The notes under the pieces were generated by a model. The model was given only the letters and a program-made list of their open reading frames with translations. It had not been told where the DNA came from and ran no database searches. From Girardia tigrina (Eukaryota): a DNA stretch of 64,000 nt. The stretch spans positions 2,433 through 66,432 of the forward strand of contig MQRK01168300.1 of the NCBI GenBank assembly GCA_001938485.1, written 5' to 3'. Position 1 is the stretch's first letter; every line of letters starts with the position of its first letter. Shown in pieces: positions 8,595-53,454 of the stretch. The translations under genes were made by a program, and so were the position numbers.

Positions 8595-10134
8595 CAGGGT
8601 GTGACAAAAGTAACGCAAAACATGAAATTTAGATAGAATATACATGTAAAACATTAAATTTTTATTCAAACACAACTAAAAACGTCGTTTCAATTCATGT
8701 TCGAATAGTAATTCAGTCTTCGAAATGATGACCATCGCTGTTCAAACATTTCTGCAGCCTTGAAGATACCGACTGGCACACCCTTTGGTACAATTCATTG
8801 TCAATTGATTGTACACCATCGGTGATTGCTGCGGTCAATTCCTCGATTGTTTGAGGCTTTCTGTTGTACACCAAGTCTTTCAACGTTCCCCAAAGAAAAA
8901 AGTCCGGTGGCCATTCCATCCAACCACGTCTTCCAATCCACGAAGCTGGGAACTTTGCATTCAACCAGTCTCTCACAATAATTGCAAAATGTGGTGTTGC
9001 TCCGTCGTGCTGGAAAATGATTCGTTCACCACCTTGTATTCTCGACTNNNNNNNNNNNNNNNNNNNNNNNNNNNNNNNNNNNNNNNNNNNNNNNNNNNNN
9101 NNNNNNNNNNNNNNNNNNNNNNNNNNNNNNNNNNNNNNNNNNNNNNNNNGCACCAGACTGTGACTCCTGGAAGATTTACTTCTTTTTCGATGATCTCGTG
9201 AGGATTGTTGCTTCTCCAGTAGATGCAGTTGTGCCTGTTAATGTGACCGTTCAGCTTAAATACTGCCTCATCAGACCATAAGATGGAAATTAACAAAGGA
9301 AACATTTTCTACAGCATAAGCCAAAAATTCTTCTGCAAAGTGTAGGCGTCGATCTGAGTCGTCTTCATGGAGTGCATGAAATAATCTCGGGATGTATGGT
9401 TTCAAGNNNNNNNNNNNNNNNNNNNNNNNNNNNNNNNNNNNNNNNNNNNNNNNNNNAGCATAAGCCAAAAATTCTTCTGCAAAGTGTAGGCGTCGATCTG
9501 AGTCGTCTTCATGGAGTGCATGAAATAATCTCGGGATGTATGGTTTCAAGCCCATGCTTCTTAGACAACGGTGGAGACTTCGGTAAGAGATTTCATCACC
9601 GGAACCATCCAACTGACAAGCTATTCTGCGACACGAAGAAGTTGGAGTGGCATTGACCTCTCTCAGCACAGCAGTTTGGATATTAAAATCATTTATTACG
9701 GAAGGTCGTCCTGACTTTGGAAAGTCCCATACTGAGCCGGTGTTTTCAAACTTCTTCACGAGTCTCTGAATTGTTGATGGCTGAATTGTCTCTTTATTTA
9801 ACTCCACATTCAATTGCTTTGCTGTATTACTGTAATTGCTGCACTTATAAATGTATTTCACGGCTTTAATTCTTTCTTCGGTTGATAATCTGTTCTCCAT
9901 TATCGATTAAATGAACTCCAAACGTTCACTTTTAAATCCAATTTATGCTTAACACAAGCGATGAATCGATAAAGTAAATTTGAAATTCAAATTTTTTATT
10001 TATAAAAAAGAAAAGTTGAAACATAGAAATCGGCTGAGAAATGAGTCAAACTAATCACAGATTCTGAACGACCTTAAAAGTATGATTTAAAATTTAGTCG
10101 TTCCAAGATTTTGCGTTACTTTTGTCACACCCTG
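8595..10134 (-). mobile_element. Full-length Tc1/mariner-superfamily element (rosa/DD41D-like); transposase 9900..8713
   Basis: Perfect 26-bp TIRs (CAGGGTGTGACAAAAGTAACGCAAAA) and a TA TSD on both sides. Motifs KKFENTGSV, WSDEAVF, FQHDGATPH, WIGRRG, DFFLWG. The ORF is broken by N-gaps. Confidence 0.92.
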
Positions 10135-19916: not shown

Positions 19917-20950
19917 ACTAATTAATAATCAATTCACCGGTATATAAATACAAAAATGATGATTGTGTAATCGATTGCATGAAATCTCGCTAATCAAAAA
20001 TTCTCAATAAGCTATTTGAGACTGCCGATTGAACATTGATTTTAGGGCAACGTGACCTAATTAACAATGCTTTACACGACACTCTCTCCCAATAGCTGTC
20101 AAAATTCTTACACAGAATTTTGAAATTATCAAAATTAACATCACATTTACATTTTTTCCTATGTTCTGCAATATTATACTTACTCTCTTTTCGACCATGT
20201 TCTTGAATTCATTTACAGAGATGACGGGCAGTCTCTCCAATGTATGTGGCATCGCATCCATTACATTTATATTCATAAACAATATCAGAACAAAGTGTTA
20301 AAGGTGTAATAGATTTATTACTGAACATATNNNNNNNNNNNNNNNNNNNNNNNNNNNNNNNNNNNNNNNNNNNNNNNNNNNNNNNNNNNNNNNNNNNNNN
20401 NNNNNNNNNNNNNNNNNNNNNNNNNNNNNAATTAAACAATATTTAGGCATATTATTCATATCTAATGATCCTACAATTTCTTTCTTAGATCCATCAGGAG
20501 AAGCCAAACTCTGATTTTTCGAAAAATCTTTTAAAAGTATTTTATCTAGTGTAGTTTCCTTTATTAATTTTTCTAGAAAAGATTTAGAATAACCATTCTT
20601 ATTTAACAACGAACTTAGTTTATTAACACTTTCTACAGATTTAACAAAAGTGGAAGACAACGACCAGGAGCGATAAATTAAACCTTTAATCATGTTTCTT
20701 TTATACTTAAGTTCACACAAACTATTTGGTGAAGTATATAAACCTGTATCAGTTTGCTTCCTATAAATTTCAGTCTCGTAACCTAGAGATTTTCTTTCAA
20801 CCAAAAGATCCAGAAAAGGTAAGACTCCATTCTTTTCATTTTCAACTGTAAAAGTAACATTTGAATGTAACGAATTCATAAAATTTAAAAATGGAAGTAC
20901 ATCAGCCTGATTTTAAAAAACTAGGAATATATCATCAACGTATCGTTTAT
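19879..20950 (-). mobile_element. 5'-truncated Penelope-like element (RT C-half plus GIY-YIG) with 3' hammerhead
   Basis: YKRYVDDIF, LPFLDLLV, YRKQTDTG, VYEYKCNGCDATYIGETARHL. Confidence 0.9.
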
Positions 20951-21352
20951 ATATAAAATAAAGAAAACACGCCATTTTAATAATTTTTATTATACAACAA
21001 AACTTGTTTCGACATTACGGCATCATCTGTTGTGAAATACTTTCGGAATTCAAGTCATTTATATGGCACATTGACTACACTCAAACCTGTTTTATGCGAT
21101 TTTTTGTGCGATCTCATAATTTAATTTTTTGTATGAAATGGTAAAAATAAAGTCACATAAAACAGTTGAGTGTATTGCGCAATTAATTTTTTAAAGCAAA
21201 AACAAATTGATTGCGTCGTAGTCAATATGCCATATAAATGACTTCTAATCTGAAATTATTTCACAACTGATGATGCCGTAATGGCGAAACATATTTTGTT
21301 CTATAATAAAAAAATTAATAAAATGATCAGTTTTCTTTATTTTGTTTATAAA
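20946..21352. repeat. ~405-bp foldback element with a hammerhead motif in each arm
   Basis: Arms 20946-21078 and 21218-21352 are reverse complements. Inner hairpins at 21076-21174 and 21178-21215. Confidence 0.85.
21263..21299 (+). ncRNA. Minimal hammerhead ribozyme motif
   Basis: ACAA-CUGAUGA-U-GCC/GUAAU/GGC-GAAAC-AUAU-U-UUGU. The mirror copy at 20997..21033 (-) has the mutated core CAGAUGA. Confidence 0.7.
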
Positions 21353-24769: not shown

Positions 24770-27700
24770 TTATTCCGTAATTGTATTTGTGTTTGGAGAA
24801 TCCAATATTAAAGCGTTCTCTCCACTCGAGTCACAACATTCAATCGTCAGGGGTGAGCTGATGAGGAGCTTCTTCGACGACACCTCTTCACTGGCGTTAT
24901 TGTTGCTGGAAATGCGTTTCTTTTGATTATCTTCCTAAAAATATTTTTTAATTCACTTTGGTAATTATAAAGAATTAGAAAATCAAAATAGTTTTTAATT
25001 CATGCTTTATGCGGGCAGAACTCTACTTGGCCAACAGAATGTTTTCGTTGTCTTTTGTAGAAAGGAAATTACTATTACATTTTTTAATAAATTTGTAATG
25101 TTATTAGTAGCTATTAAAATCTTTTTTGTAGGGAAAATTTCATACAAAAAAATTTTTACAACTCCATTTTGCAATTAAATAATTACTAATAACATAATAA
25201 ATTTATTTTAAAGGAAGGAAGGAAAAAAACCAAAACATTTATATTTAATGCAGTTTACATATTTGTGGATAATCGTAAAACGATATTTTCCAAAATAAAT
25301 TAAATTAACCTTTTGAGATCAGTTGATTTGTTCAATCGATACGCTGTAGCAAAATACGACTACCCTGAAAATTTCAGCTCCACAGCATCATGGGGAGTAG
25401 GTTAAAATTGCAAAGTGAGGCTGGACACGGGAAAAGATCACACGAAATCAAGTTTATAGGAAAGAACAACAGAAAGAAAGGAATAAAGCATGGAAATTAA
25501 TCCTGTATTTATAATAATTTGATTCGCATAATGTAGTAAATGAATAATATATTATTTTTCCTTCACTTAATGTTAAATAGGAATAAAATGTATGTTGAGT
25601 CAAATTTATCATTTTAATGTCGAGGAAAAGAGATTGTAAAAAGAGGAGGAAGTCTCGCAGTTTGTCGACTCAATTAAATAACGTCTGTCGTCCCAGTTTA
25701 ATTGAGACATCCTTTGCCGTTTTTCTGTCTGCGTCGAGTCGCAAATCTTTTTGTCCAATTGTTTCATAACATCGGGCGTTTCTTTGTTTCACCCAATTGC
25801 GTCTCAGACGACATTCTTTAGTCTTGATAAATTAAAGAATATTTCTTTAATAAATATTGAAATATTTCTTGTTTTATTCTTTTTTTTACATCTCAATCAA
25901 AAGTTATGATAAACGTTCGTTGTGAGAATTATTATCATTTTTGTCTCTCTCTATCTAATTTTTTCTTTTTATTTGATTAATTAAAATAAAAATAAAAAAA
26001 TAATAACATAAATCATGAAAAGGAAATAAATAATAAAAATATTATTTATTTAATATGTTTTTAAATATAGCTTTTGTGGATTTCTAAGCAATATGAATAA
26101 ATAAATACATGTAAAAGAGAAAGAATGAAGAAAAAGAATTTAAGAAGGAGAAAAAAATGAAATATATAAATTAATAAATTTAGGTATTTTGGAAAATATA
26201 ATTTTTTTAAGAAATAGATTATTGCTCATTTTGGAAACTTATTTTCCATCATCATCAGTAATTATTAAATAAAATAAATAATTTATCAGTAAATATTATT
26301 TTTTAAATTTTTTATGAAGTCTCTTTAGGAAAAACCTGTGCCGTATAAGAGGTATGTAATTTTCAAAAAAGAATCTTGTTCTTCAAAACCAATCTCTGAT
26401 AGAAGCATTTTATTTACAAACTTCCTCCTCTTGAAATTCTTGTACGTAAGATGAATGAGAAATATCGAAAGAAATACAAAACGACAAAAGATACAGGTCT
26501 TTGCATAACACCACAGAGCTTTTCTGAGAAAAATTATAATGATGGTACGATGAAACGCTTAGTTCACAGAGTTTTGAATTTGTCTTCCATATTTGAAATC
26601 ACAGAACATGGTTCCAACATATTCCTAAAGGACACTCGAAAGATAACATGTACTTAAACAAGAAGATAGATCACAACATTAAGGCTAAATCGGACAAATT
26701 ATTTACACAAAAATTGTTTAAGAAAGAACTAAATGAAAAAAAACATTGAAGAGTACATATAAAAATTCAAAAATCAGTATTCCGGAAGGATTGTTTTCCG
26801 GAAGTTGTTTTAGTGACATCCAAAGGTCAAAACTTCCTCTAAAAGAAATCGAAAACGATTTGTATAGAATATAAACTAATCTGGTCAATAAATTTAATTG
26901 TAAAAGGTGCAAAAACTCGTATACTGGAGAGATTTCAGGGATCAACTGTGCAAGCAAGGCTGACATACTTCCACGAAGTGTCCCTGGGAAACTAGAATGG
27001 GTTCGAATCCGTCTCTAGGCTAAAGTGTCTGATAAGCTAACCGATATCTGCGCCGACAGAATATTGTAGTACCAGTGGGCTTCCAATCCACTTACAAAGC
27101 TCTATCTTCCTAATCTGAGTGTCATGGCTGTTGGGAGTAGTGACCCTGTAGTCGAGTGGTCGATTGCATCGTATAAACTCTTGATTTTAATCAGGATGGT
27201 GGTGTTGAGAAATCGGTTCGCCAGCTGAGGTTAATTATGTCAATTCCCAGTTGGGGGAGTGCCTTTTGAAGCCATAAGCGTCTCAGGCCTCCTAAAAAGC
27301 CTCAGACTTAATACCTTTATAGGATGTAAGAATCACACTGGAGAGATTAATCGTCATCTCGAAACCCGGATTAGTGAACATTCACAATCAAGTCGATCAA
27401 GTAAGGTTCTTAATCATTAGTTACATTGTAAAAATTGAATGTCTTCTATTTCAAAGGATGACTTTATTGTTTTACTTAAAGATTTCAATTTACACTATGA
27501 GCGGAAACTATTCATACAGCACTACAACCCAATAATAAACATTCAAAATGGACAAAGTAAAGCGGTTTCGAATATTACAATCTTTAATTAAAATAAAGAA
27601 ACAATTTGTCATTAACATCCAATAAAATCCTGAAATATTTAATATTTTATGATAAAATTTCCAATTAATTAACATTTTATTATCTTATTTATTACAATAT

Positions 27701-29940
27701 AATTGATGAAAATTATTATTACAATAGAAAATGAAATTACGAAACATGTACAATAATTTATATATATATATATATATATATATACAGGGTGGCCCAATGT
27801 GTACACAGCCTCTAATTTTTGCGAATCTATTTTTATAAAAAAATTCTGAGTTTCAAAATTTGACCTTTATTGCGCAAAAAGGTCAAGTTCTGGAATTTTT
27901 ACACCTCACATGTTATATATCAAAATACTCGTCTTGACGAGTAGATTTAGAATATNNNNNNNNNNNNNNNNNNNNNNNNNNNNNNNNNNNNNNNNNNNNN
28001 NNNNNAGGTCAAGTTCTGGAATTTTTACACCTCACATGTTATATATCAAAATACTCGTCTTGACGAGTAGATTTAGAATATGCAAAAATTAGAGGCTGCG
28101 TACCCATTGAGCCACCCTGTATATGTGTGTATTACTAATCAACGTGAGACATGTTTAGCTCACAATTTTTGATCATCTTCAGAAATTTTATTTGGGTTGT
28201 AATTTAATTGATTAATTGATTTGATTTACATATTATTATAAAAAATAATATTAAAATTAAATTTTATTATCTAATATTTATTATTGTTAAACCTAAATTT
28301 TATTAGTTTTATTTATAGATATTCGTTATTATGCCTGTTTTTCTTTCACCGAAAAATTTCAAATTATATATATATATATATATATACAGAAAAAACCGGT
28401 TTTATTCGATTGCATAATTTATAATTAACAGGAATTAATTCAAAAATATTTTTTGCGAATATTTATCAATCTGTTGGGAATTCAATTGAGCAACACGAGC
28501 GATGGATTAATTTTCTTTCTCAACAAACGAAAAAATGTGGAGATGAAGCATGGAAACATCCATCCCGAGATAAAATTGTGGCGTTGCATGAAAACGGGAA
28601 ATTGGCATGTCAAATTATCTTTCGATTTCATCCATTTAACTCTGTTTGGCAACGAACTGTTATTTTTATCTCCTCTTCTTTTCTCTCTCTCGTCCTCCTT
28701 CTCTCACACTCGACCCCCTCCCTCTATCTGATTAGAGATTGAATTAATGAGAAAATAATTATTGAATTTAGACTTAATAGATTTTCTTTTATTTTTCTTC
28801 AAACCAAAAAAAACAACAACAACATTGACAATTAATTTTTCATAATTTTCCTTTTCCGAAGATTTTCTCTGACATTTACCCCCATTTGATTTTAATTAAT
28901 TTACACATTTTCCCCGGTTTTTTTGCTTTCGTGCCAACTGAAACAAATCAATTATTTTTTTTGTTATTTTTTGCATAAGAGAAAATACTAAAAATAGAAA
29001 ATGTTTTTTGTCTTCAAAAGAAATTTATTCTTTAATTAATAAAAAAACCCCAAATCAAAATCAATTATTTTTTTTCACAATTTGTGTGGGTTGTTCTTGA
29101 AAAAATAAAAAAAATTATTTTAATTGTTAAATTTATATTTTAGAAAGAAAAAAATTTTAATGACAACAAAAAATTATCGGGATTGTTTTGTGATTTTAAA
29201 TTAATAAAATTATAATTATTTAATTATTAAATTTATATTTTAAAGAAAAATTAATTTAATGATAACAAAAATTATTGGTAATTTTTTGTGGTTTTAAATT
29301 ATTAAAATTAATATTATTTAATGATTAAATTTATATTTTAAAGAAAAAATAATTAAATAATAATAAAAAAATATCAAGAATTTTTTGTAATTTAAAATTA
29401 ATAAATTTATTTTTATAATGACAAAAATTATTGGTATTTTTTTGTGATTTTAAATTATTAAAATTATTATTATTTAATTGTGAAATTTAATTTTTACAGA
29501 AAAAAATAATGAAATGATAACAAAATATTATCGGGATTTTTTGTCATAATTTAAAATTAATTTAATATTTTTTTATTTTAAAATTTTTTTTAAATAATAT
29601 TTTTATAGAAATATTTGTAAAAAAAATGAAAGATCAAAACCGGGTTTTTTATTATTTTACTCTAAAAGAAAATCTATAAACGTTAAAAGATAAAATTCCC
29701 TCAACTCGAAAATAGTTCAGTGGAATATTTCAAAAACCCTCCCGAAATCGATTAGCCCCCCTCTTTGCCCTGCTTCTTTCTGGTTGAATAATTGATTAAT
29801 ATATTTTTGCTACAACAATTCCCAAACGTTTGTTTGGAATAAATTTGCATCATTTGCTACATGAGATATTTTGATGAAAAATTGATTTTTTCCCCTCTAA
29901 CGATAATGGATAAAACAATTTCTGTTATTGAATTAACAAA

Positions 29941-29992
<52 letters not shown>

Positions 29993-32235
29993 CTATTTTA
30001 TTTTTATTATTAGGGAAAAATTTTATTTACCATTTTTAAAAATTTTCTATAGAAATATATTTTGATTATTTTCTTTTATAAAATCAAAAAATGAAGTAAA
30101 AATAAATAATATTTTAAAAATATACCCATTTCATTGTTACCATATTTTCAGTATAATATAAAAAAGTTTAAAAAATATTATGTCAAATTCTTAGTGTGAA
30201 GATCATGGGTCTTATAAATAGCACTCGAGGATAACTATGAAGCATAGGAGAACCCGCGGTCGATTGTGAGATAGTCTTGTAGTTGTAGTTGTTGAAATAT
30301 AGAACATCCTGAAAAGCCTCTTGCTTAATACCTTTATATAATACGAAGGTAACATCAACTAGCCAGATATCGCTATACAAGGCAGAGCTGTAGTGAGGGC
30401 GGTGCGAGCGGTGCGGCCGCACCGGGCATATGGGCGCCAAAATCGCAAAATGACCAATTTTGACTGATCAGATCTCCTGTAGGCTAATCACTATATAATA
30501 ATAATTATAGTAGTCTTTTTTGTTTAATGTCAAAGCATCCATGAATTTATCCGAATAAATTGATGTTTTCTTATAGCTAGACGATGCAAGGCTTAAGCAT
30601 CAATGCTGCGTCATAGAGCATGTGAATACGAACGTCCAAAGTCAATTTAATTCTTTTAAGGCATAATTTGTAGTAGTGAATCTTTTACGCGCTGGGAGCG
30701 CCAGATTTGAACTTCGCACAGGGCGCAATTTTTCCTTACTACGGCTCTGATACAAGGTAATCAGGCATACTTCCAAGTAATGTTTGATTGAGTTTGATTC
30801 TACTTTCAGAAGAAAATATCTAAAAGATAGGCGAATACTGTACGTCAGCTGTAATTTTTAATATTCTGTGGGTCTTTTATCAACTCAAAAGTGAGGCCTA
30901 ACAGTGGTACTCGAGTTTGATGACACCTATAAAGAAATGGTGAACTCGTGATCGAAAATGGAAAAGTATGTCGAGGATTTTCGTTGAAATAGACGAGCTA
31001 GGTAATGCTATAAAATTATCAGTTTCCCAGAACCTCCGAAAAGGCCATAAAGTTAATACCTTCTTGCATGAGAGTATCAAATCAGATACAATTGTCCGCT
31101 ATGCATAGTCAGTTAGATATATTCACACGTAGGGTCCCTGGGAAACTAGATTGAGTAGTTATGGTGCTGATTAACTACATATGAGTTAGTGTACAGTTAT
31201 CTATGAGTATCTACTATGAATTTTCATTGAAAATATTGATATGAAGATGTCACATACGTCGCAGACCCCAGAAAGAGCATCTAGTTTAATATATGTAACT
31301 GGATGGAAGAATCACACAAAATACATTATAAATAATAGATAGACAGTTCTAATATAAATATAAACATAATGAACTATAAAGTTGTGTTCACACATTTTTA
31401 TAATAATACGGACAGATTACATAATGACGTATTTGACATTATGTAATTATATATTATAAAAATATTATTTCTAATTATTATTTTCTTAAGCACCTGATGA
31501 TGACGGTTTTATAATTGATTTTAATTGTTGAATAGTAAAAATATTTTTTTTAATCATACATTTATATTTTTCAACGAATCTATTCACCTTTTTTAAATTA
31601 TTTAAATTATTACTTCATTTATCAAAAATAAATTCTTATATGTGAATATATGAATCCCCTTGTACGCTCAGTAATGGTTCATGTTGATTTATTAACAATG
31701 CTTCAGAAATAAATTATCTTCATTCAATTATAAAAGACCAAACATTTGTCTTTTTTTCGAAACTTCTTATCATTTATTCATATTTAATTATATTTTATTT
31801 TTAAAAAAATCTTATTTTATCAATAATGACTAACTTTTTCAAAACGAACAGCTTTGAATAAAATATACAAGATCATTTTATAAATTTAAATAATTAAAAA
31901 ATAATGGTATAGTATTTTTGAAAACATAAAAATGCAATTAAAACAATTAACAAACAATTAATTTCGTCGGTAAAAAAAATTATGAATTTTAAATATGCTA
32001 ATATAGACGAGCGGCGATCACGCAATCGACAAATAATTGCGTCATATAAATAACTGTGTAACTCAATACGGTTGTCGATAGACCTGCCTTCACATTAATC
32101 TTAGGACCTAAAGATCTGATATATAGTGTTTCAAGCAGGCTAAAATTAAGTATTTCTTTATGACCTGACGATGACAATTACACCGTCGAAATTAATTGTC
32201 TAAAATAATAAAATATTTTCTTTAAATGTGTTTTT

Positions 32236-35200: not shown

Positions 35201-36766
35201 AGTTTGTAATACTGGCCGCGTGTGTTGCATATATTTTTATATTTAAAAAAATTGCGCATTGTAGGGTTAATGTTTCATTGTATTTTGTATCAAACTTGTT
35301 ACATACCGAAGTTGCGTGTTAAACTATCCTGGAAAGTGATATGTGCGATCCTTGAGCGTCTTAGCGACGTCGGTCGCATACGACACAAGTACGTATCTAG
35401 TTCTATATGGATCATATTACTTGTATTACATTGTTAAACATGTCATGTAAAAAAAACTATGTTCTTTTTTTTAGTGTTCAATAAATTGTCTAAATTCTTC
35501 GGTTGTTCTCCTCTTGACGTGCGTCATTTTGCGTTTGAATTACGTACTTAAAATATATTTTTAAAACTAACTTTCCAAATAAACAAATTAACACCCTTTA
35601 TCAATTATCAGAAAAGCTTTAAAATTAAAGATAATAATTACTTAATATTTTAGTGGAGAGAAACAAATTATTACAATATATAAATAAGATTACCGTTTTG
35701 GGGGTAGTTCACTGACACTGGAACAAAACCTCTTTTTGATCTCGTCCAAATAGTCGTTTAGGCTTTCCTCTTCCAATTTCGTTCTCGTACAATCTTCACT
35801 CAAACGTAAATACCAGCGCCAATTACTCGAATCAAAACCCCAATGACAGACTTCAGTTTCCGACCACTTCATTCCGAATTCCTGATGGGTGTGACCAACA
35901 AAATCCGCTGGTGACATCATTCGGCCACATTCCAAGCATTCAATACACTGAGCATTCGAGTGAGTATACTTCAACGGGAATATTATGCCTTTCTGTTGTC
36001 CAAAACAGTCATGGGTAACTCTAATCTGATGGTAAGCTGCCGAATCCAGATTGATTTTGTCTGATACAGACGTGTTGTTATTTCCATCCGCGGGATTAAG
36101 ATCAACGTTGATGCTGTTGAAGAACTTCAGCAATCTTTCGGCATTTGATTGGGAAATCAAACCACAGCAGCTAACCTGTTTCGGCAAGATGTTATGCTTA
36201 TGAAGCACTCCCAATCTCTCGTCGTCGCATTCGGTACAAGTTATTCCCATTGAATTGATGGCTTCATTTATGTCACTAATACTAAAAAGAAACTGTTGTT
36301 ATTTTGTAAAAAGATAATCATTTTACTCGACGTTCTTCAATAAGTTGAGGATTTGCGGTAAGCACAGTAATTTTTCACCTTCATTATGGAAACTTGCGAT
36401 ATATGTTTTGTTGAGCAAAGTATATGTAAAGTTTTCTGTAGTCGAACTGTTGGGAGATTTAGCCCGGTTGTCTGATTCCAGTTCCTCCAAACCATTAATC
36501 GACTCGTTGGTTTTAATACCATCATTTTCCGGTTTTTGATACGGTCGAAATGGACTTGTTTTACTACCTATGTCGGTTGAAAGATTGCCATTAGCTGGAC
36601 ATCCATAAAGGTATCTCATCAACATTGTTGTGGGAAAAATCGTCTTTTTTGCTGCTAAAAGTTTCTGGGAATATAACTGTTGAAAATTTTTTATCATTTC
36701 TCGATCATAACCACTGATCGGACTTAACCAATCTAACCCTTTCAAAGGTTCCGGTTTTAAAAGCAT
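24770..36766 (-). CDS. ski: Ski/SnoN family co-repressor. Exons 36766-36327, 36281-35694, 33803-33751, 33291-33119, 33032-32889, 24934-24770 (520 aa)
   Basis: Ski_Sno domain (EKLLCLPQIL; CGLISQSNAERL) and SAND-like Smad4-binding domain (HDCFG...CIECLECGRMMSPADFVGHTH...CHWGFDSSNWRWYL), followed by a coiled coil. All introns are GT-AG with consistent phases (1563 nt total). Exons 1-2 are firm; exons 3-6 are hand-inferred. Confidence 0.88.
26935..27336 (+). mobile_element. Short non-coding retroelement headed by an HDV-like ribozyme
   Basis: Perfect 12-bp TSD ACTGGAGAGATT (26923-26934 and 27337-27348). No meaningful ORF. Related copies at 30190-31315. Confidence 0.85.
26936..27029 (+). ncRNA. 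HDV-like self-cleaving ribozyme
   Basis: P1 CAGGGAU/GUCCCUG; P2 GACAU/GUGUC; P3 ACU/AGU; L3 UCCACGA; P1.1 CC/GG; P4 CUAGA..AUGGGU-UCGA-AUCCGU..UCUAG; J4/2 G-CUAA with predicted catalytic C27020. Confidence 0.85.
27785..28119. mobile_element. Tc1/mariner MITE (length inflated by gap-flank duplication)
   Basis: TIRs CAGGGTGGCCCAATG...CAGCCTCTAATTTTTGC with TA flanks. Confidence 0.8.
29100..29560. repeat. Degenerate AT-rich minisatellite (~110-120 bp units)
   Basis: Recurrent ATGA(C/T)AACAAAAA..TTAT(C/T)GG..TTTTGTG.TTTTAAATTA units. Confidence 0.6.
29941..29990. repeat. (ATT)n microsatellite
   Basis: Seen directly. Confidence 0.95.
30190..31315 (+). mobile_element. Decayed head-to-tail trimer of the HDV-ribozyme element family
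   Basis: Three unit ends resemble CCTAAAAAGCCTCAGACTTAATACC. Ribozyme remnants at 30364/30760-30785 (GGCATACTTCCAAGTAATGT) and 31083-31150 (GTCCCTGGGAAACTAGA). Confidence 0.65.
30383..30749. mobile_element. hAT-type MITE, 367 bp
   Basis: TIRs CAGAGCTGTAGTGAGG / CCTTACTACGGCTCTG and a perfect 8-bp TSD ATACAAGG. Confidence 0.9.
32162..32200 (+). ncRNA. Minimal hammerhead ribozyme motif within inverted-repeat element 31921..32242
   Basis: GAC-CUGACGA-U-GAC/AAUUACACC/GUC-GAA-AUUAAU-U-GUC with palindromic stem III. Truncated mirror copy at ~31955-31971. Confidence 0.72.
34314..34692 (+). other. Structured GC-richer insert with an RTE-like 5'UTR segment
   Basis: CCAGGTTGAGGGGATG...TTTAGCATTTCTCTCCCGTAACAAA resembles RTE 5'UTRs. 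Multiple hairpins. Confidence 0.35.
35026..35266. mobile_element. piggyBac-type MITE
   Basis: TTAA|CCCTACAATGCGC ... GCGCATTGTAGGG|TTAA. Confidence 0.9.
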
Positions 36767-37199
36767 TTTTTGGTCAATTATAAATTTTGAATTAAAGAAA
36801 AAAAAGAAATGAAAGAAAAAGATTAAATTAATATTAAACTGGGGAAAATTATTATTCTCGTAATATATTTCAGGAAAAATTATTTTCTTGAAAGAAAATT
36901 TTGCGATCTTTATTGTGATTGGAGGGAGAAGAAAAACGGGAAATGGGAATGAGAAAACATCGACCCAATGGAATTTAAGGAAGGATTCCTTCATACAAAC
37001 TTTTCCCCCGAAACACACAATTTTGATTTGAGGTTCTCCATTTTCCGTTGCCAGTTTTATCTTTTGAATGTCTGAACTTGCCTGGATTTGAATTGCCAAA
37101 TCGATACTCTCCATCCACCATCGATGATTCGCTTCTCTTCCTCCTTTCCTTTTTTTCCTTATAAAACAAACAAAAAAATAGAAAAAAAATTAGAATTTT

Positions 37200-43642: not shown

Positions 43643-44305
43643 TGAATTAACAACAATTTCGCTGTCTTATATATAGCAAATTGATGATTATGCAAACATC
43701 TTGCGTGATAACTAATTAAATATTTTCAACAAATTGGAAGAGAGACTTGTTTGTACATTAATGGACGGATTAAGTGATTTAATCAATAATGCTTCACAAG
43801 TAACTCTTTCCCAATAATTTTTAAAATTACTGCACAACATTTTAAAATTAGTTGTTTTCACATCCAATTTACAACCCTTCATGTGTCCAGCAATATTACT
43901 CCCACTACCCAATCGTCCATGCTCCTGAATCCGTTTACAGAGATGACGAGACGTCTCGTCAATGTATGTAGCGTTGTACCCATTAGATGAAAATTGATAA
44001 ACCAGATCTGAACATAAACTCACAGGAGTGCGAGATTTATTGCTGAATATACTTTGAATTTTGTAAGATTTAGAAAAGATTTTTAAATTCAAATTTTTAC
44101 TATCGATTAATTTTAAAATAGTCGATTTAAATTCTTTGTAACCTTCTGAATAAGGAACGATTAGCGTATATCCAATATTAAAATTTTCATTAGATAATTT
44201 ATCGGGTTTTAATTCGTCTTTAACCTCATGTTCTTTATTCATTAATTTATCTATCGTCTCATTAGTTAATTCCTCTAAAAATGATTTCGAATAGCCATTT
44301 TTTTC
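43606..44305 (-). mobile_element. 5'-truncated Penelope-like element (GIY-YIG) between (TA)n tracts
   Basis: LVYQFSSNGYNATYIDETSRHLCKRIQEH...EALLIKSLNPSIN. Confidence 0.88.
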
Positions 44306-45672
44306 TATATATATATATATATAATTTTGGGTTTGTTGTCTAAGTGAATTGTAGTTTGGGGGGTTTTTTGAAGATTTATAAAGAATAAAGTATTGAGATG
44401 ATTTTCGTTTTTCGTTCTCTGAATCCACTGCAACAAAAATGAGCGGACAAGAAAAATGTGAAGATAAAAGCCAAACAAAGACAAAGACGAAGGTCGTATC
44501 CCTCGGAAATTGTAAAAGGGAAACTACGCCGAAAAAAATGGCTCTGGGACGCCACTTTATCTGGCTCCAGTGTTAAAGTATTTATCGACCAAGGTTTTGG
44601 AGTTTTCTAGCAATGCCACCAGAGACAATAAAAGACGAGAATGTAAAACGGTCCTCATTAGGGCCAAAAATTGTGATTGGTTTCATTTTAAATAGAACGT
44701 CTTAAAGTGTTTGGTCCTTTGAAAAAATGTAAAAGTTACATTTTTCTAGTAAAATTAAAATTTGAATTTTCTTGTTGAGTTTCTTTATTGTGTTTAAATT
44801 TTAAAATGTTATTTTTGGTCATACAAATAATTAAATAATTTATTATTTTTAATTTTTATTAAATAAATAAAGTATAAATTGTAAAAATTATGATTAAAAA
44901 AAATTAGATAACCCCACCGGATCGGTCCCAAGTCAAAAGAGACCGTTATTCCTAATTCTACCCAACCTTCTCGATTCATTTACAAAGAAAGATAACTTTA
45001 AAACTGTATTCAAAATTCTTCACGAGACAGTAAAGAATCAATGCCCCAAGATCGCTTCAATTATCCAAGTGGATAAAATAAACCTGGTGCAATTTCTAAG
45101 TAGTCCAGAAAGTAACCCTACCAAACGTCGCTTCAGAATCACTAGAAGCTTATCAACAACCTCTACTACTTTACTGAAGATATCAAAACATTGAAAACGT
45201 GGAACTAAGCTGGCTGAATAGAATGATTAGAACATAGTCAAAACGAAATACTTAGTGATGTTGAAGATGCTGATGATTCACATGTAGACGACAACAGCTC
45301 AATCTGCTCACACCACTCTCAAATCTCATTAACCAGAACTCATCGAGGCAAAAGACTAAGAGGTCCAAAATGCGCACAATGATGGGTTGGCACTGTTGGG
45401 TTCTTGATCAAAATTATAATTCATTAACACCAAAACTTTATTACATCTCTGAAAACAAAAATTTCATAAAGTTATTCTTCCAAATAACTTTTAAAATAAT
45501 TGCAAAACAATTAAAACAATACAATTAAAATTCAATTATTTATGAAAATAACTTTTTTAAAATTAATTAAGATATTTTTTTAGTTATAACTGTTTTAGAA
45601 AACTTTTGATTTTAAATATTTCCTTATTTTAGATATTATTTTTAAAAATTAATAATTTCAAAAATTTAAAGA

Positions 45673-46705: not shown

Positions 46706-49178
46706 ATTACTTTTTTAAATTAATAATTTTTTAAAATAAGATTTTTCAATTACTGTTATTTTAGTCATGTAATAATTTTTGTTTAAATTTAATTTAATAA
46801 ATTTCAGATTAATAAATTTCATTCATATAAAAGAAAATTATAAATGTAATTTGAAATAAATTTTGAATTATTTCAAAAATATTTTTATTTTAAAGACATT
46901 TAAAGGATTTTCCTATAATAAGTTAATATTTAGAAAATATTTCTGTACAGTTGTTAATTTTTACTACTTCCATCGTCTTGTAATTTTTATATATATATAT
47001 ATATATATACATAAAAGCATCATAAAAATATTTGTTATTCAAACCGAGTTTTCCATTACATTTCGTCACTTTTTATGTAAAATAACTGTAAAATTAAACT
47101 TCCAAGAAAATGTTTATATAAAAGATTTCATAGATAAAAGCCTTTTACAAAAAATATTTATAAACGAAAATTTATTAATATTAATTATTTAAATGAATAT
47201 AATTTAGCCATATATAATATATATTGATGAATATATTACATTAAATATCAAATAAACTGATTGTGAGAAGTGTTTGTAACATCATTTCATAAATCATTTT
47301 TTCTTTACTCAATTTACATATTTATTATAAACAATTTTCAAACAAATTTTTAAACTATTTTCTTAATTAATAATTCATCCGCCATCTCTGTCTCAAATAA
47401 TTTTTCATTTATTTAAAATTTCAATCAAATTAAAATAATATTTCATTTTTAAACTTTAAAATTTTAAAATAAAAAACAAGCCTTTTATAATAGTTTTTTT
47501 ATAATTTTGTTTTTTAAGTAAAATATTATATGCTGTTTTTCATTTTGCGTTTTTTAAAAACATTTTTTTAATATTTTTACTATTTTTAAAATTTTTGAAA
47601 ATACGTTATATTTAATATTTTAAATATTTAATTTAATTTTTTTAATATTTTAAATATTTAATGTTTTAATCGTATCCCTAAATTAATTCAAAATTTGAAA
47701 AATAAATTTTTAGAAATATTTAAAAAATGTTTTAATAGAATTCAAATTATTTTAAAAATACTTTTTCTGTTATCTATGTTGATCCACTCCTTTTTCTACT
47801 AATATAATATTTTAATTAAAATAAATTTATAAAGAATAAGTTTAAATTTAAAATCTTTATGTATTATTCTAATTACTAAACTTTGTAATTTGATTTTCAT
47901 TCAAAATAATTTTTATTTTAAAACTAAAATTAACTACCGACTCATTCAGATAAAAGAGAGTAATTATTTTAACTGTTCAAAATTATCATAAAAACCAATA
48001 AAATGTACTTATTTTTATGATTAGTTAAGAAAATTGAATAAATATCCCATTTGAACAAATATTTAGCTATTTTTCCTGTTTTAATAATCATTTCACGGAT
48101 CTGAAATATTCAATTAGTTTGTTGTATATTTCTTTATAACATAAAGAAAGACTTTATTAAAAAAATCTTTTTTAACTTAATCTTATTAATAATAACATAT
48201 ATTTAAATTAATTATCATTATTTTAAGCAAGCTTTACAATATTTCAAAATATGAAATATTAAAATACATTTAATTGTACTTAATCAAATTGAAATTTTAT
48301 TTATTTTTTTTAAAACCTTTTAAAAATTTTTAATTTTAAAGTTTTTTCCTGTTATTGTAATAGGAAAATTTATTTCAATTACCAATTTTTGTTTAAATTA
48401 AAAAATTTGTTAAATTTAAAAATAATTTTTTATTTAAAACTAAATATCTTTTTTGTAAAAATTTCATACTCCGTATTTTGAATTTTAAATTGTATACATC
48501 TCAATTTGTCAGCAAAATTAAATTCACTTAACTTCACGTAATAATGAACTTTTTTTTTATTTTTGAAAATAAACAATTTTATTTGGACATTTTTCCTGGA
48601 AAATTTACTATTATTTTTTATTTTATTTTAAAACTGAATTTAATCTTATACAGACTCAAAAGAATACCCGTTAATCAACTCAGCTTCAGAGTAATTGGAA
48701 ATAGATATTAAGCTTAAATAAATAAAAATATTATTAAATTTGTTTTCCAAATATATAAAAAATGTTATAAAATATTATAAAATAATTATTATTCAACTAA
48801 ACTAAAAAATATTTCTTAATAATTTAAAATGTCTTTAAATTTTTAGTTATTTTAAATTGTCTTAATTTTGAAATTTTTCAAATAGAATATAAATTATGTC
48901 TTTCAACGATATATATTTTAATAATTTCATTTCGAATTTTTATTTGCAAATTTTATTTTAATTTTTATTTTAAAATTTATTTAAATAAATCAAAAAATTA
49001 TCAAAATTTGTTTAAATATTTGAATATTTTAATTATTTATATTTCTGTAATGAATATTATATCGAAATTTAAACTATTTTTACAAGAATTTTCTTTTTCT
49101 GCATATTTAAATATCGATAATTTTATAATCACAAAAGAAAACAGATTAATAAATTTTCAAAAAGTTATTAAAAAAGTA

Positions 49179-51858
49179 ATGTCGATGTTTATGAACGATG
49201 AAGAAAATTACTCAAGTTTCGTCAATGTTGATTTATCTGATTCACCATTTCATAAAGTTTTTCATCCAACAAAAAGTGAACAGTTTTATTTCTCTCTCAA
49301 TTCTTTTTTCAACATAGATATTTTCAGACAACATTGCAAATTTGTATTTTTAATCAACATTTATAATAAATTGTTTTCTGTCGATAATAAATATCCTAGT
49401 GAATGGATCAATGAATTGAGAAGTCAGTGTCATGCAGTTGGAACACAGTTGGCCAATTGTGAGGATCAATCACTCATACTGCCGTATTTATATATGAACT
49501 TACTGAGTTCGAATTGGTTGGGAGAATCTGTAAATAAATTATTTATTCAAGATCAAAACACAATCTATATGTTTCATTTACTCTTCTTAAATTTTTCACA
49601 CATCTTTCAACATAGCAATTTATCCTCCAGACATTTAAAGAATACCCTTTCTCTATATACAGATCTAATTAAATATCGAGAAGTACGACTTTTTCTTATA
49701 AATTCTTCATTTTTAAAAAGTGATCCGAGTAATTTATTCAAGGAGAAACCAATTGAAAATATTTCTCATCTTGAATCTATATATAATATAATTGGATTTC
49801 CTGAAGGAGAATCCACAATTACGAATCACCAAACTACTTCTCATTCTTCAAATGACTTTGTTAACTTATGTTCTGAATTGTGGGATTTACAAAAAAATAT
49901 CATGTTGATATTCCTCCGTTCCGAAGCTAAACAAATAACTGTAGACTTTTTGTATCAATATTTAAATAATCATATGAAAATTGTTGGTGATATTAATTAT
50001 GATCATGAAATAAAAAGAAATGGTTTCATGATTAATTTGAATGCATTTTTGCAAAATGTAGCATCAATGGTTTGCTTGGATAATATAGACGAAGATTATT
50101 TAAATCGGGAAGAATATCCATGCAACCCAAGGGAGGGTATCGGTAGACATTTGTTTGAAGAAGTAAGAATTGCTGCTGACAAGGACGATTTATTATGTTA
50201 CTCAATAGATTTATCGAATGATCCGTCGTATATTAAACTGAATTTAGAAACTCAATTATTTTACTGGAGTTTTTTGAGTTATAAAATGTCAATTTTACCA
50301 GCTTGGCGTACATACAAAACAATCGATATGAACTTGAAAAATATGGAAGAAGAAAAATGGCATTTAGAACAACACATTATGTATAATAATTTACAACATG
50401 ATTCACAAACAATGGGAATAATTTATGAAATGGAACAAAATATCAAAAATATGAAACTCATGAAAATTAGTTACGAAAATGTTTTATTGAGTGACGATTT
50501 TACAGAACGAACTTTGGAATTTCTCGTGACGAAAAGCAAATATATTTTAAGATACCAAAATGATGAAAGACATTTCAAATATTTATTACAATTATTATTT
50601 GAAAATATTTCCGACTCTTTATTGTTATTATTGGAAAATTGTCCACGAAAAATCGCGATGATTTTGAACTCATTTAAGTTCGAATCGATTGTTGAACTCG
50701 TCGTTCTCGTAATTAATAAGTCAAACTGCTTTACATCGCCGTATTTAGTACGCAAATTTGTAAAAATATTTGAAATTTTTGTTTGTAATGTCGGTAATAA
50801 ACTAATGGACCATTACAACTCAATATTCGTTGAAACATCTCATTTGTATGTGGGAATAGATTTTGTCAATAACTTGATCCAATATTTCAATGCCATTGAG
50901 AAAATGGAGTCAGGCATTTACACAAATGATAAATACAATACGAGATGTGCCATTTGTAACATTCTTCTCATTCTGTGTTTGGAGGCTCCATCTATCATTA
51001 AACTTGACGATTATTCCTTAACTAAATTTCTTAACTTTTCCTTCGATGATATAACACATTTGATGGAAAAAACTTTTGAAAATATAAAGAAAGTGCAAAA
51101 TATTCAATATACAGTTAAATCAATAAGCGGTTTGTCGAAAGAACAACATTATAACTTATCTGAAGAAATGTGCTTTTACCAACAAAATATTCCCGCATAC
51201 ATAAATAATGTTACATATTATTGTCGTTTCCTCGAGCTATTATCTAAAAATAATCAAAAACATTTTTTTAAAAAAGAAATAATTGATAAATGTGTCACAA
51301 TGTTTCATTATGTGTTTTGTGAAATCTCCGGTCCAAATAAAAAGAATTTATACATCGAAAATACCGAACAATTTAACTGGAGACCGAGATTGATATTTTC
51401 CATGTTCTTAGACATTTATTTAAATCTTAGTTCCGATCCTTTTCATAAAGCAATATCAAAAGAAGAAATATATTTTACAGATGAAAATTTTTATCATTTT
51501 TATGATTTTAATATGAAGAAGGACGATCAACTAAGAAAGAGATGCTTGAAATTGAAAGTTGTTTTAAATAAATCAAGTTATTTCAGAAACAAATATGAAA
51601 GAAGACAAAGCTGCCTGCATGATGCTCCAGATAAATTTATTTATTATTTCGGGTACAATAATGTCTGATCCGGTAAAGATTCCTCATTCAAATGTCATAA
51701 TCGACAATAAAGTTATTAAACGACATTTACTGACGAATAATTTTGATCCGTTTAGTCGTTTACCTTTAAAAGTTGAAGACTTGATTCCACAACGGGATTT
51801 AAAATCCGAAATTAAATCGTGGAAAAGAAGAAAATATAAAGTATATAATATTCATTAA
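49179..51858 (+). CDS. Intronless Ufd2/UBE4B-like U-box E4 ubiquitin ligase, frameshifted at ~51642
   Basis: Ufd2-core motifs NGFMINL, SPYLVRKFV, DKYNTR and SGPNKKNL...DIYLNL. The U-box DAPDKF|..TIMSDPV...IKRHLL...DPFSRLPL continues in the +1 frame. AATAAA at ~51886. Confidence 0.8.
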
Positions 51859-52048
51859 AGATATTGTTATAAGAATAATGTTGTAAATAAATGCATTTTA
51901 TTGTTCTACTAAATATTTTTGCCAATCTTTTTGATGTATTATTATTATTATTATTATCTGAAGTCTTTCGATATCAAAAAATAATATCATTCATAAAATA
52001 TAATGTTTTGTGCAGCATGGACTAACAAGAAGTAGATAACTCTTACTG

Positions 52049-53020
52049 TTAGGGAATTAAAGTGAATCCTATTGCCCGTTTAACTCTAAACCACCAAGAC
52101 TTTTTTGACAGAATGTTACCTTTATTATTACCTGTGGTCAACCAAGTCAGAGCCGAAGACAAATCAGCGAAGTCCACATTTAACCGAGAAGCAGCAGTGA
52201 AACAAAGGGAATCAGAGATTATTTGTTTTGTATTAGAGCATTTTGAGTTCAGCAGGCGAAAAGCTTGCACAATACTCTGTATGCTGTATTCGTCTCGAAG
52301 ATCATTCCAGCCCGCTCCCCCGTTATCAGTAGAAGAGTACAGGTAACAGACTTCCGAATTTTTAGGTAGATTTAACATTCGACGTAAAGCAGATCGCAGT
52401 TTACTGCTAACATTAGATTGATTATTGTTTTTACTGGTTTTAAAAGATAAAAACGTTGTTTTAATTTCTCTGGTCCGAAGTGAATAAATAAGTCATGGAT
52501 ATAAAATAAATTTAAATGCCTTTAACTTTTGCCAATTAGGTAAATCTGAGTCGAGAATTTTATTTGTGACAGAGACTAGTTTTTTAAGAGTGTCATATTG
52601 TGTTTGATCATAGTTAATTCCTATTGGAACACCTAAATACATATAGAATTCTTTCGGTTTTAATTTCTTTATTGGTGTCTCTTTTATATAAACTTCAGTA
52701 TTTTCTTTCTCTCATAGAATTGTAAATATGCACATTTATCAGGGCGGTATACAATGCCTGATTTTTCTGTGACAAAAACTGCTTTATTAATCATACTTTG
52801 TAAGTCATGATTTTTATTTACTATAAGCGCAGTATCATCCGCATATACCAACACTTGTACAGGAGAATTTCCTAACATGAATGGGGAGATATTCATTGAA
52901 CTTACTGCTTCTAGAACCGGATTAATCACTAGGGAGAACAAAGTCATAGAAAGAGGGCATCCTTGCCGAACACCCTTTGTGACTTTGATATTGGGGGTTA
53001 CAAGCGAGTCGCAGCTGTAA
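52049..53020 (-). mobile_element. R2-group (NeSL/Utopia-like) reverse transcriptase remnant
   Basis: KGVRQGCPLSMTLF, VYADD, YLGVPIG, YLYSSTDNGGAG. Confidence 0.85.
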
Positions 53021-53454
53021 TATTAACTATTATCTGTATATAATAGTTGAATTATATTATAATTTATATGTATTTGTTGTTAAAATTAATAAATATTTAC
53101 AAATATTTATATTTTTCATAGATGGGATATTTTTGATAAATAAATATAAAATTATATTTTTTATATAAATAAATAAAATATTTAACAAGGTTTGAGTAAA
53201 TAAAAGAAGAAAGAGAGACAGATATTTAAAATCAAATAATAAATAATAAATTCAAATTAAAATAAAATTTAGGCTAATTATTCTAGTTATCTAATTTTAG
53301 TAAATAGTGAATTGGAAGCTTCGAAAACAAAATTTATTATAAATTATTTATTTAATTTAAATTTTGATAATGGAAATGAATTTAACATACTGAAAAATAT
53401 TTCTTGTGAATTTTTGCATTAATATACATGAATACTACAGGAAGAGAATTTAAA

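Follow-up and report, generated by a model that had tools for sequence, protein, structure and literature searches.

A decayed head-to-tail trimer of a ribozyme-headed retroposon in Girardia tigrina, probably formed by separate insertions at one target site

Three head-to-tail units of a small non-autonomous element lie at ~30175-31313 of the window, by which we mean the whole 64,000-nt stretch of Girardia tigrina DNA analysed here, and we consider them, with a probability of roughly 0.7, to be the decayed remains of three insertions made separately at one target site. On this reading the trimer itself is an ordinary set of stacked insertions, and the main import of the locus lies in the elements to which it belongs: a LINE with C-terminal fingers, a 5' HDV-like ribozyme and a two-part target, together with several ribozyme-headed non-autonomous families. 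Copies lacking a promoter of their own would be cut from host read-through transcripts by the 5' ribozyme, and the LINE protein would insert the small element by target-primed reverse transcription from the 3' tail. The upstream motif and the target-site duplication (TSD) would outlast each insertion, so that the same site could be targeted again and the order TSD-unit-TSD-unit-TSD would arise; the stack would later have decayed, lost its 5' part and received a MITE. Double insertion that leaves a TSD in the junction is described as an established route to tandems in the available text of bioRxiv 10.1101/158386.

The trimer and other tail-to-head junctions

Profiles built from genomic copies outside the trimer confirmed the three head-to-tail units that a preliminary description had proposed from the letters alone, all five head and tail pieces being recovered. 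Tails matched at 30304-30348 (E = 5e-8), 31013-31077 (8e-5) and 31246-31306 (2e-4) and heads at 30752-30822 (1.4e-3) and 31096-31156 (4e-9); at E <= 1 the 64-kb window held these five pieces, the monomer at 26936 and nothing more. The 3' ends quoted earlier were located at 30312, 31039 and 31301, the decayed ribozyme starts placed after the first two of them correspond to the two head matches, and the reported 17-nt identity to the monomer is present. The units are, as had been claimed, copies of the element at 26936, whose start folds HDV-like. The ribozyme remnants claimed for the junctions are the broken heads of units 2 and 3, and unit 1 has no ribozyme. The inserted MITE is likewise real, with inverted repeats and an 8-bp TSD, while its hAT label is presumed from the length of that TSD.

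Table 1. Features of the trimer, the reference monomer and its insertion site (window coordinates)
Feature	Position	Strand	Remarks
Unit 1	30175..30351	+	5'-truncated, decayed old-subfamily copy: central body and 3' tail, without ribozyme
Spacer 1	30352..30363	+	Starts AC; 7/10 and 7/10 identity to the other two post-tail 10-mers
Unit 2	30364..31078	+	Near full-length old-subfamily copy, ~340 nt without the MITE
MITE	30383..30749	.	367 bp, terminal inverted repeats, 8-bp TSD 30375-30382 / 30750-30757
Spacer 2	31079..31088	+	Between units 2 and 3
Unit 3	31089..31313	+	Old-subfamily copy, 225 nt, large internal deletion
10-mer after last unit	31314..31323	+	7/10 and 6/10 identity to the spacers
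Reference monomer	26936..27334	+	Young subfamily A, 399 nt
Monomer 5' TSD	26923..26934	+	12 bp, perfect copy at 27337-27348
HDV-like fold of monomer	26936..27031	+	P1 26936-42/26980-86, P2 26960-66/27025-31, P3 26967-69/26977-79
HDV-like fold of monomer, rest		+	L3 26970-76, P1.1, P4, catalytic-position C at 27020
Decayed coding stretch, taken to be Penelope-type GIY-YIG	26870..27555	+	Three-frame translation; monomer interrupts YTGE codons

All three units fall in an old subfamily, older than that of the monomer, and the impression that they are quite diverged was borne out (49-60% identity). Unit-to-unit identities were 59.6, 51.7 and 48.7%, against 66.1, 64.1 and 62.8% for the best dispersed relatives, and the units share no deletion. 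Unit 1, the 5' limit of which is uncertain within ~15 nt, showed local matches of 64-70% to old dispersed copies; a short AT-rich repeat (30050-30174) adjoins its truncated 5' end, the sequence to its left looks like a separate repeat, and in two DNA runs the DNA left of 30174 runs on into other sequence. Unit 2 contains the MITE inside its head, and an 11-nt deletion has removed the P1 3' strand and P1.1 (GG) from its ribozyme, the catalytic-position C also being lost. The MITE, 95-97% identical to 39 other copies scored among 518 candidates, is young. In the head of unit 3, P3-L3-P1(3')-P1.1 is kept and the P4 3' half, J4/2 and the P2 3' strand are lost; the body of this unit had no match among the sampled loci. 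No head passed when the structure descriptor was applied to the trimer sequence freed of the MITE. All three trimer ribozymes are missing or broken, and the trimer is inert today.

The two spacers are likely decayed TSDs, and the 10-mer behind the last unit is likely the outer TSD copy. The three post-tail 10-mers share 20/30 positions (p = 0.017, 0.007 and 0.0014 under three nulls, the first against all 54 real targets and the second against 45 non-Penelope targets), and the spacers are 60-70% alike. The count of 20/30 depends on the end of the tail profile, another placement of spacer 1 giving 12/30 (p = 0.59), and the spacer limits are uncertain in that old-subfamily 5' ends differ in length. 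Neither an outer 5' TSD nor a GTG-N10-YAC site was found near the trimer, and the genome yielded no second copy of it. Contigs of one DNA run matched 30073-30173 and 30179-30310 with zero differences, and the remaining non-MITE part of the trimer was uncovered, which proves nothing. Decay has gone too far for the order of insertion to be proved, and the units may share one old common origin, given that the old copies formed a star-like, poorly supported tree. Our confidence in the stacked-insertion reading of the window trimer consequently leans on younger tandems, because similar spacers fit a duplication too, the tree does not resolve the units and the 5' target is gone.

Outside the window, 15 distinct tail-to-head junctions were collected as the union of two surveys read by eye, the loci being a sample and not a census. 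The spacer clearly copied the flanking TSD in 8/15 (L046, L052, L125, L159, L170, L178, L193, L203) and partly matched it in 2/15 (L029, L078); four further spacers were Penelope-target-like with no flank visible (L168, L184, L190, L252), and a single junction (L119) had no spacer. Five of the 15 joined a LINE end to the small element, and at least six joined different subfamilies. At L052 three target copies surround two different units, and at L203 and L178 the duplicated stretch takes in the first bases of the downstream unit, from which it follows that the upstream unit was inserted later. Both observations that the preliminary description had said would count against its retrozyme interpretation, TSDs between units and different subfamilies per unit, were thus made in the younger tandems, whose TSD spacers and mixed units make the alternative it had also named, repeated insertion of the element into itself, the best reading. 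The available text of bioRxiv 10.1101/158386 describes tandem transposable elements from double insertion with the same TSD in the junction, mixed truncations and a preference for good target sites; we see no essential difference between these and the present tandems, of which the trimer would be an old example.

Three other origins of the trimer were weighed. Local tandem duplication, in which unequal crossing-over or slippage made three units out of a single old copy and its TSD, each unit then decaying on its own, would be expected to leave TSD-like spacers as well and is in keeping with three units all of one old subfamily. We nevertheless regard it as improbable, because no deletion is common to the units, each of which is closer to dispersed copies, and because the younger tandems that can be resolved mix subfamilies or combine LINE and small element. 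Template jumping, by which the LINE reverse transcriptase would have copied three RNAs serially in one insertion, would also produce the head-to-tail order; the spacer-free fusion at L119 fits it, and jumps are reported for R2 in the available part of PMC3414825. It predicts fusions without spacers, however, whereas a 10-12-nt target-like spacer was present in both window junctions and in 14/15 of the others, and we consider it very unlikely.

The preliminary description had preferred a retrozyme-like multimer, a trimer copied at once from a circular or multimeric RNA that HDV ribozymes cut to unit length. The head-to-tail order, the 225-400-nt units and the ribozyme fold at each start in intact copies agree with this, as do the younger dimers L029 and L203, in which both heads pass the structure descriptor, although these are 2/15 tandems only. 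Tandems are a minority, however: 4/64 exact 5'-motif matches lay directly behind a tail motif, all of them one locus in four contigs, and a junction was present in 5/68 distinct loci (70 sampled from the start of the 767-match list for the core motif). No array exceeded three units among 316 loci sampled, and the junction spacers are specific to each locus and not constant in the family. The monomer-to-multimer comparison proposed with that interpretation came out, within our sample, with monomers dominant and homogeneous tandem arrays not seen. With no foldable ribozyme in the trimer and no further copy of it, we give the multimer as little credence as template jumping. The broader proposal of a genomic HDV-ribozyme circRNA system with the trimer as its fossil is also doubtful, as dispersed TSD-flanked monomers dominate and the window junctions hold no foldable ribozyme; if true, it would be the first such system and a live model for the origin of retrozymes. 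Contigs of four sequencing runs, three of them presumed RNA, cover the element and include at least two joints at which the sequence goes back to an earlier part, each in single contigs. These joints are no evidence either way, because genomic dimers would produce them as well and the parts cannot be ranked by contig depth.

The small element and its HDV-like head

Genome-wide searches were made in the 1.43-Gb assembly. The monomer returned 2769 candidates, 40 of which were scored, and a 16-mer of the ribozyme core had 767 exact matches, compared with 0 for the reversed control. Copies of the family number in the hundreds to thousands, and most of them are dispersed monomers flanked by TSDs. 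Full copies measure ~390-410 nt (subfamily range 300-450 nt), have neither an ORF nor poly(A), and are followed directly by the TSD. TSDs were detected in 31/62 full copies versus 0.6% of 3782 mismatched pairs, and in 63/125 copies of an enlarged set, where their length was 8-16 bp, mostly 11-13 bp. We distinguished subfamilies A (that of the monomer), B, a long-P4 type, C and an old type, the copies of which are ~60% identical to one another. Family C (L180, L188, L209), 305 nt in length and bounded by TSDs of 12-15 bp, shares the ribozyme core and is unrelated in body and tail; its P1 has 6 bp and starts with G, and its 7-bp P2 contains one more compensatory pair. At L033:1096-1830 a young copy has inserted tail-to-tail into an old copy of opposite orientation, at the 3' end of the latter. 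We rejected a tRNA-derived Pol III SINE, since six loci gave no tRNA calls and no Rfam tRNA match and a B-box-like loop is confined to A, being deleted in B and C. The element is apparently an undescribed SIDE-type non-autonomous retroposon.

The first 96 nt of the monomer have an HDV-like topology, with P1, a variable J1/2, P2, P3 with a 7-nt loop, P1.1, P4 and a G-C-N-A-A joiner. Three features of the HDV consensus, a catalytic C followed by N-A-A, an L3 of the type UCCnCGy and a GG after P1, were nearly invariant in the head alignment. The fold was found by hand and then tested by pair counts on 40 hand-chosen copies of three subfamilies: 93.3% of 960 cells were paired, with 53 double changes that represent few independent events (0/500 shuffles), as against 15-53% of cells in slid-partner controls. 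Between A and B there are compensatory pairs, two in P2 and one in P3, and P4 varies in length at its distal end only. Within the window a structure-only descriptor matched the monomer alone; it passed 20/68 sampled copies and 3/4 LINE heads, and 20 shuffled windows gave 1 match. No Rfam family, HDV and hammerhead included, matched the window at E <= 1. A minimal ribozyme without P4 had been considered and was abandoned when P2 and P4 had been recognised in full. When heads and tails were folded as single strands, no z-score was significant, and we therefore claim no structure for the 3' tail.

These comparisons support an HDV-like nested double-pseudoknot ribozyme fold at the exact 5' end of intact copies, for which self-cleavage is predicted. 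The LINE and subfamily C start with a G able to wobble-pair with U, the TSD abutting it, and subfamilies A and B start one base earlier with a C, where two registers are possible. In L044, L046, L057, L088, L095 and L103, an additional hairpin with a GAAA cap extends P4. The subfamilies provide natural variants of an HDV-like ribozyme, with at least three P4 lengths, a J1/2 of 2-30 nt and a C- or G-starting P1.

The probable partner LINE and the target

The full-length LINE is 3.8 kb long and encodes an APE endonuclease (Pfam PF14529/PF03372), a reverse transcriptase (PF00078) and C2H2 fingers in one ORF, the frames of which are broken. Three loci, L293, L296 and L302 (G000:C254742, C217680, C229405), are full-length copies in which the fingers are C-terminal. 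The genome holds 5311 candidates, relatives with an intact protein of 1145-1234 aa exist, and at least one further subfamily (L252, L264) is close to the intact protein P0002. In a protein search the sole informative named match was CFDP2. With APE and RT in a single ORF, and judging by RTE-like motifs, we take the LINE to be RTE-like. A tail of short tandem repeats is usual in RTE; this LINE lacks one, and in it as in the small element the 3' end is followed immediately by the TSD, with neither poly(A) nor repeats in between.

The 3.8-kb LINE is the likely partner of the small element, because head, target and, more weakly, tail are common to both. All 4 of the LINE heads compared with the small-element model matched it (E = 3e-5 to 3e-4), and the LINE starts at the first G of the homologous HDV-like head, a G that the TSD abuts in L293 and L296. 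The tail profile matched six LINE ends at E = 8e-8 to 0.02 and, in a second search, three of the LINE loci; this modest tail homology was not picked up by whole-element profiles. Comparison of the small-element body with two full-length LINE copies revealed no homology, on which ground an origin of the small element by internal deletion of the LINE was rejected. We infer that the small element is mobilised by this LINE lineage. In L297, a LINE copy of 2.15 kb with a TSD of its own, a large internal deletion has brought the RT region up to the intact head; this copy is possibly a nascent SIDE.

Among 54 TSD-anchored sites of the small element, G was found at -14 in 33, T at -13 in 38, G at -12 in 32, T at -1 in 44, and A at +1 and C at +2 in 49 each, the +1 and +2 counts being partly set by the choice of anchoring. 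After removal of 8 Penelope-type sites, GTG began at -14 in 20/46 compared with 0-3 at 13 other offsets, where the 46 may still include a few shifted Penelope sites. Insertion thus favours the two-part motif GTG-N10-T^AC. Of 21 LINE copies examined, 11 had the shared target and a TSD, four of them at the Penelope site, and their sites carried T-13 in 9/11, G-12 in 9/11, T-1 in 10/11, A+1 in 10/11 and C+2 in 9/11.

The same motif occurs in an abundant Penelope family, within its GIY-YIG catalytic codons. The stretch surrounding the reference monomer (Table 1) was assigned to the Penelope type by motif, presumably correctly, and gave no profile match; further Penelope-like fragments were seen by eye at 20298-20912 and 43712-44572. 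Genome-wide, 481 exact Penelope sites are preceded by a non-T base and 2740 by T. In a sample of 30 non-T sites, 18 carried a tail, 3 of the small element and 15 of LINE ends, these calls having been read by eye with one duplicate pair among them. If the sample holds, roughly a tenth of the exact Penelope sites may be occupied. One retrotransposon thus repeatedly disrupts the endonuclease gene of another.

Known systems and other features of the window

According to the available parts of PMC7229834, bioRxiv 10.64898/2026.07.22.740005 and PMC7761336, the defining traits of retrozymes are type I hammerheads, an arrangement in tandem arrays and a high abundance of circles, and metazoan non-LTR retrozymes are 170-400-nt non-coding units, from dimers to large homogeneous multimers, tied to Penelope-like elements. 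The small element resembles them as a non-coding, ribozyme-bearing unit of this size range for which a head-to-tail order is possible. It differs in its HDV-like fold, in occurring mostly as monomers, in the mixed units with TSD spacers of its tandems and in its probable RTE-like partner; no hammerhead core motif was found in the monomer or the trimer, and head, target and TSD are common to an APE-RT LINE, with Penelope as the target. As four of the features that characterise retrozymes fail here, we do not class it as one, nor does it appear to function in that way.

Closer counterparts are the R2 SIDEs and R2/R1 hybrid SIDEs of Drosophila, which, as far as the available text of PMC3414825 describes them, combine a 5' HDV-like ribozyme with a 3' end recognised by an autonomous non-LTR element. 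The small element shares with these its non-autonomy, TSDs, variable J1/2 and presumed reliance on co-transcription. Its likely partner, however, is an APE-type RTE-like LINE and not R2 or R1, its body is not detectably LINE-derived, and its hundreds to thousands of copies occupy a dispersed, degenerate target rather than 28S rDNA. In NARTc/L1Tc of Trypanosoma cruzi, a short element and a LINE share an HDV-like ribozyme from nucleotide +1 (PMC3185411, available part), and the primers given there have a C at +1, as in subfamilies A and B. Here the host is an animal, the LINE protein looks, by its motifs, RTE-like rather than ingi-like, and the small-element head is ~80% identical to the LINE head over 45-60 nt. 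The small element probably works like an R2 SIDE or NARTc.

More widely, 5' HDV-like ribozymes are known from R2, L1Tc, RTE, baggins and some SINEs in the available parts of PMC6765202, PMC3185411 and PMC3414825. The ribozymes of RTE, baggins and SINEs in PMC6765202 are comparable in freeing promoterless elements from co-transcripts, and in the RTE element Perere-3 twister variants have the same role, without site specificity, according to the accessible text of PMC8501958. Our literature search, outside which lay most subscription journals and the repeat databases, returned no description of the small-element family, no RTE-like element targeting Penelope and no HDV-based retrozyme; in the literature searched, a two-part target, C-terminal C2H2 fingers and frequent insertion into Penelope codons were not found for such LINEs. 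The families may already stand in Repbase or Dfam.

The window is AT-rich (GC 20-35%) and, with Ski/Sno and Ufd2 domains, of animal type. Exons of a Ski/Sno-family gene (PF02437 and PF08782) lie on the minus strand at 35690-37190. A Ufd2/UBE4-type gene at 48828-51860 has a Ufd2P core in a 946-aa open stretch, a U-box-like part in another frame and no obvious intron, and is possibly a retrocopy or affected by a frameshift. Fragments of another non-LTR reverse transcriptase (PF00078) follow at 52049-53022. Inverted-repeat elements at 27784-28120 and 20984-21312 are probably other MITEs, and a perfect 94-nt direct repeat flanking a run of N at 9313-9550 is probably an assembly overlap.
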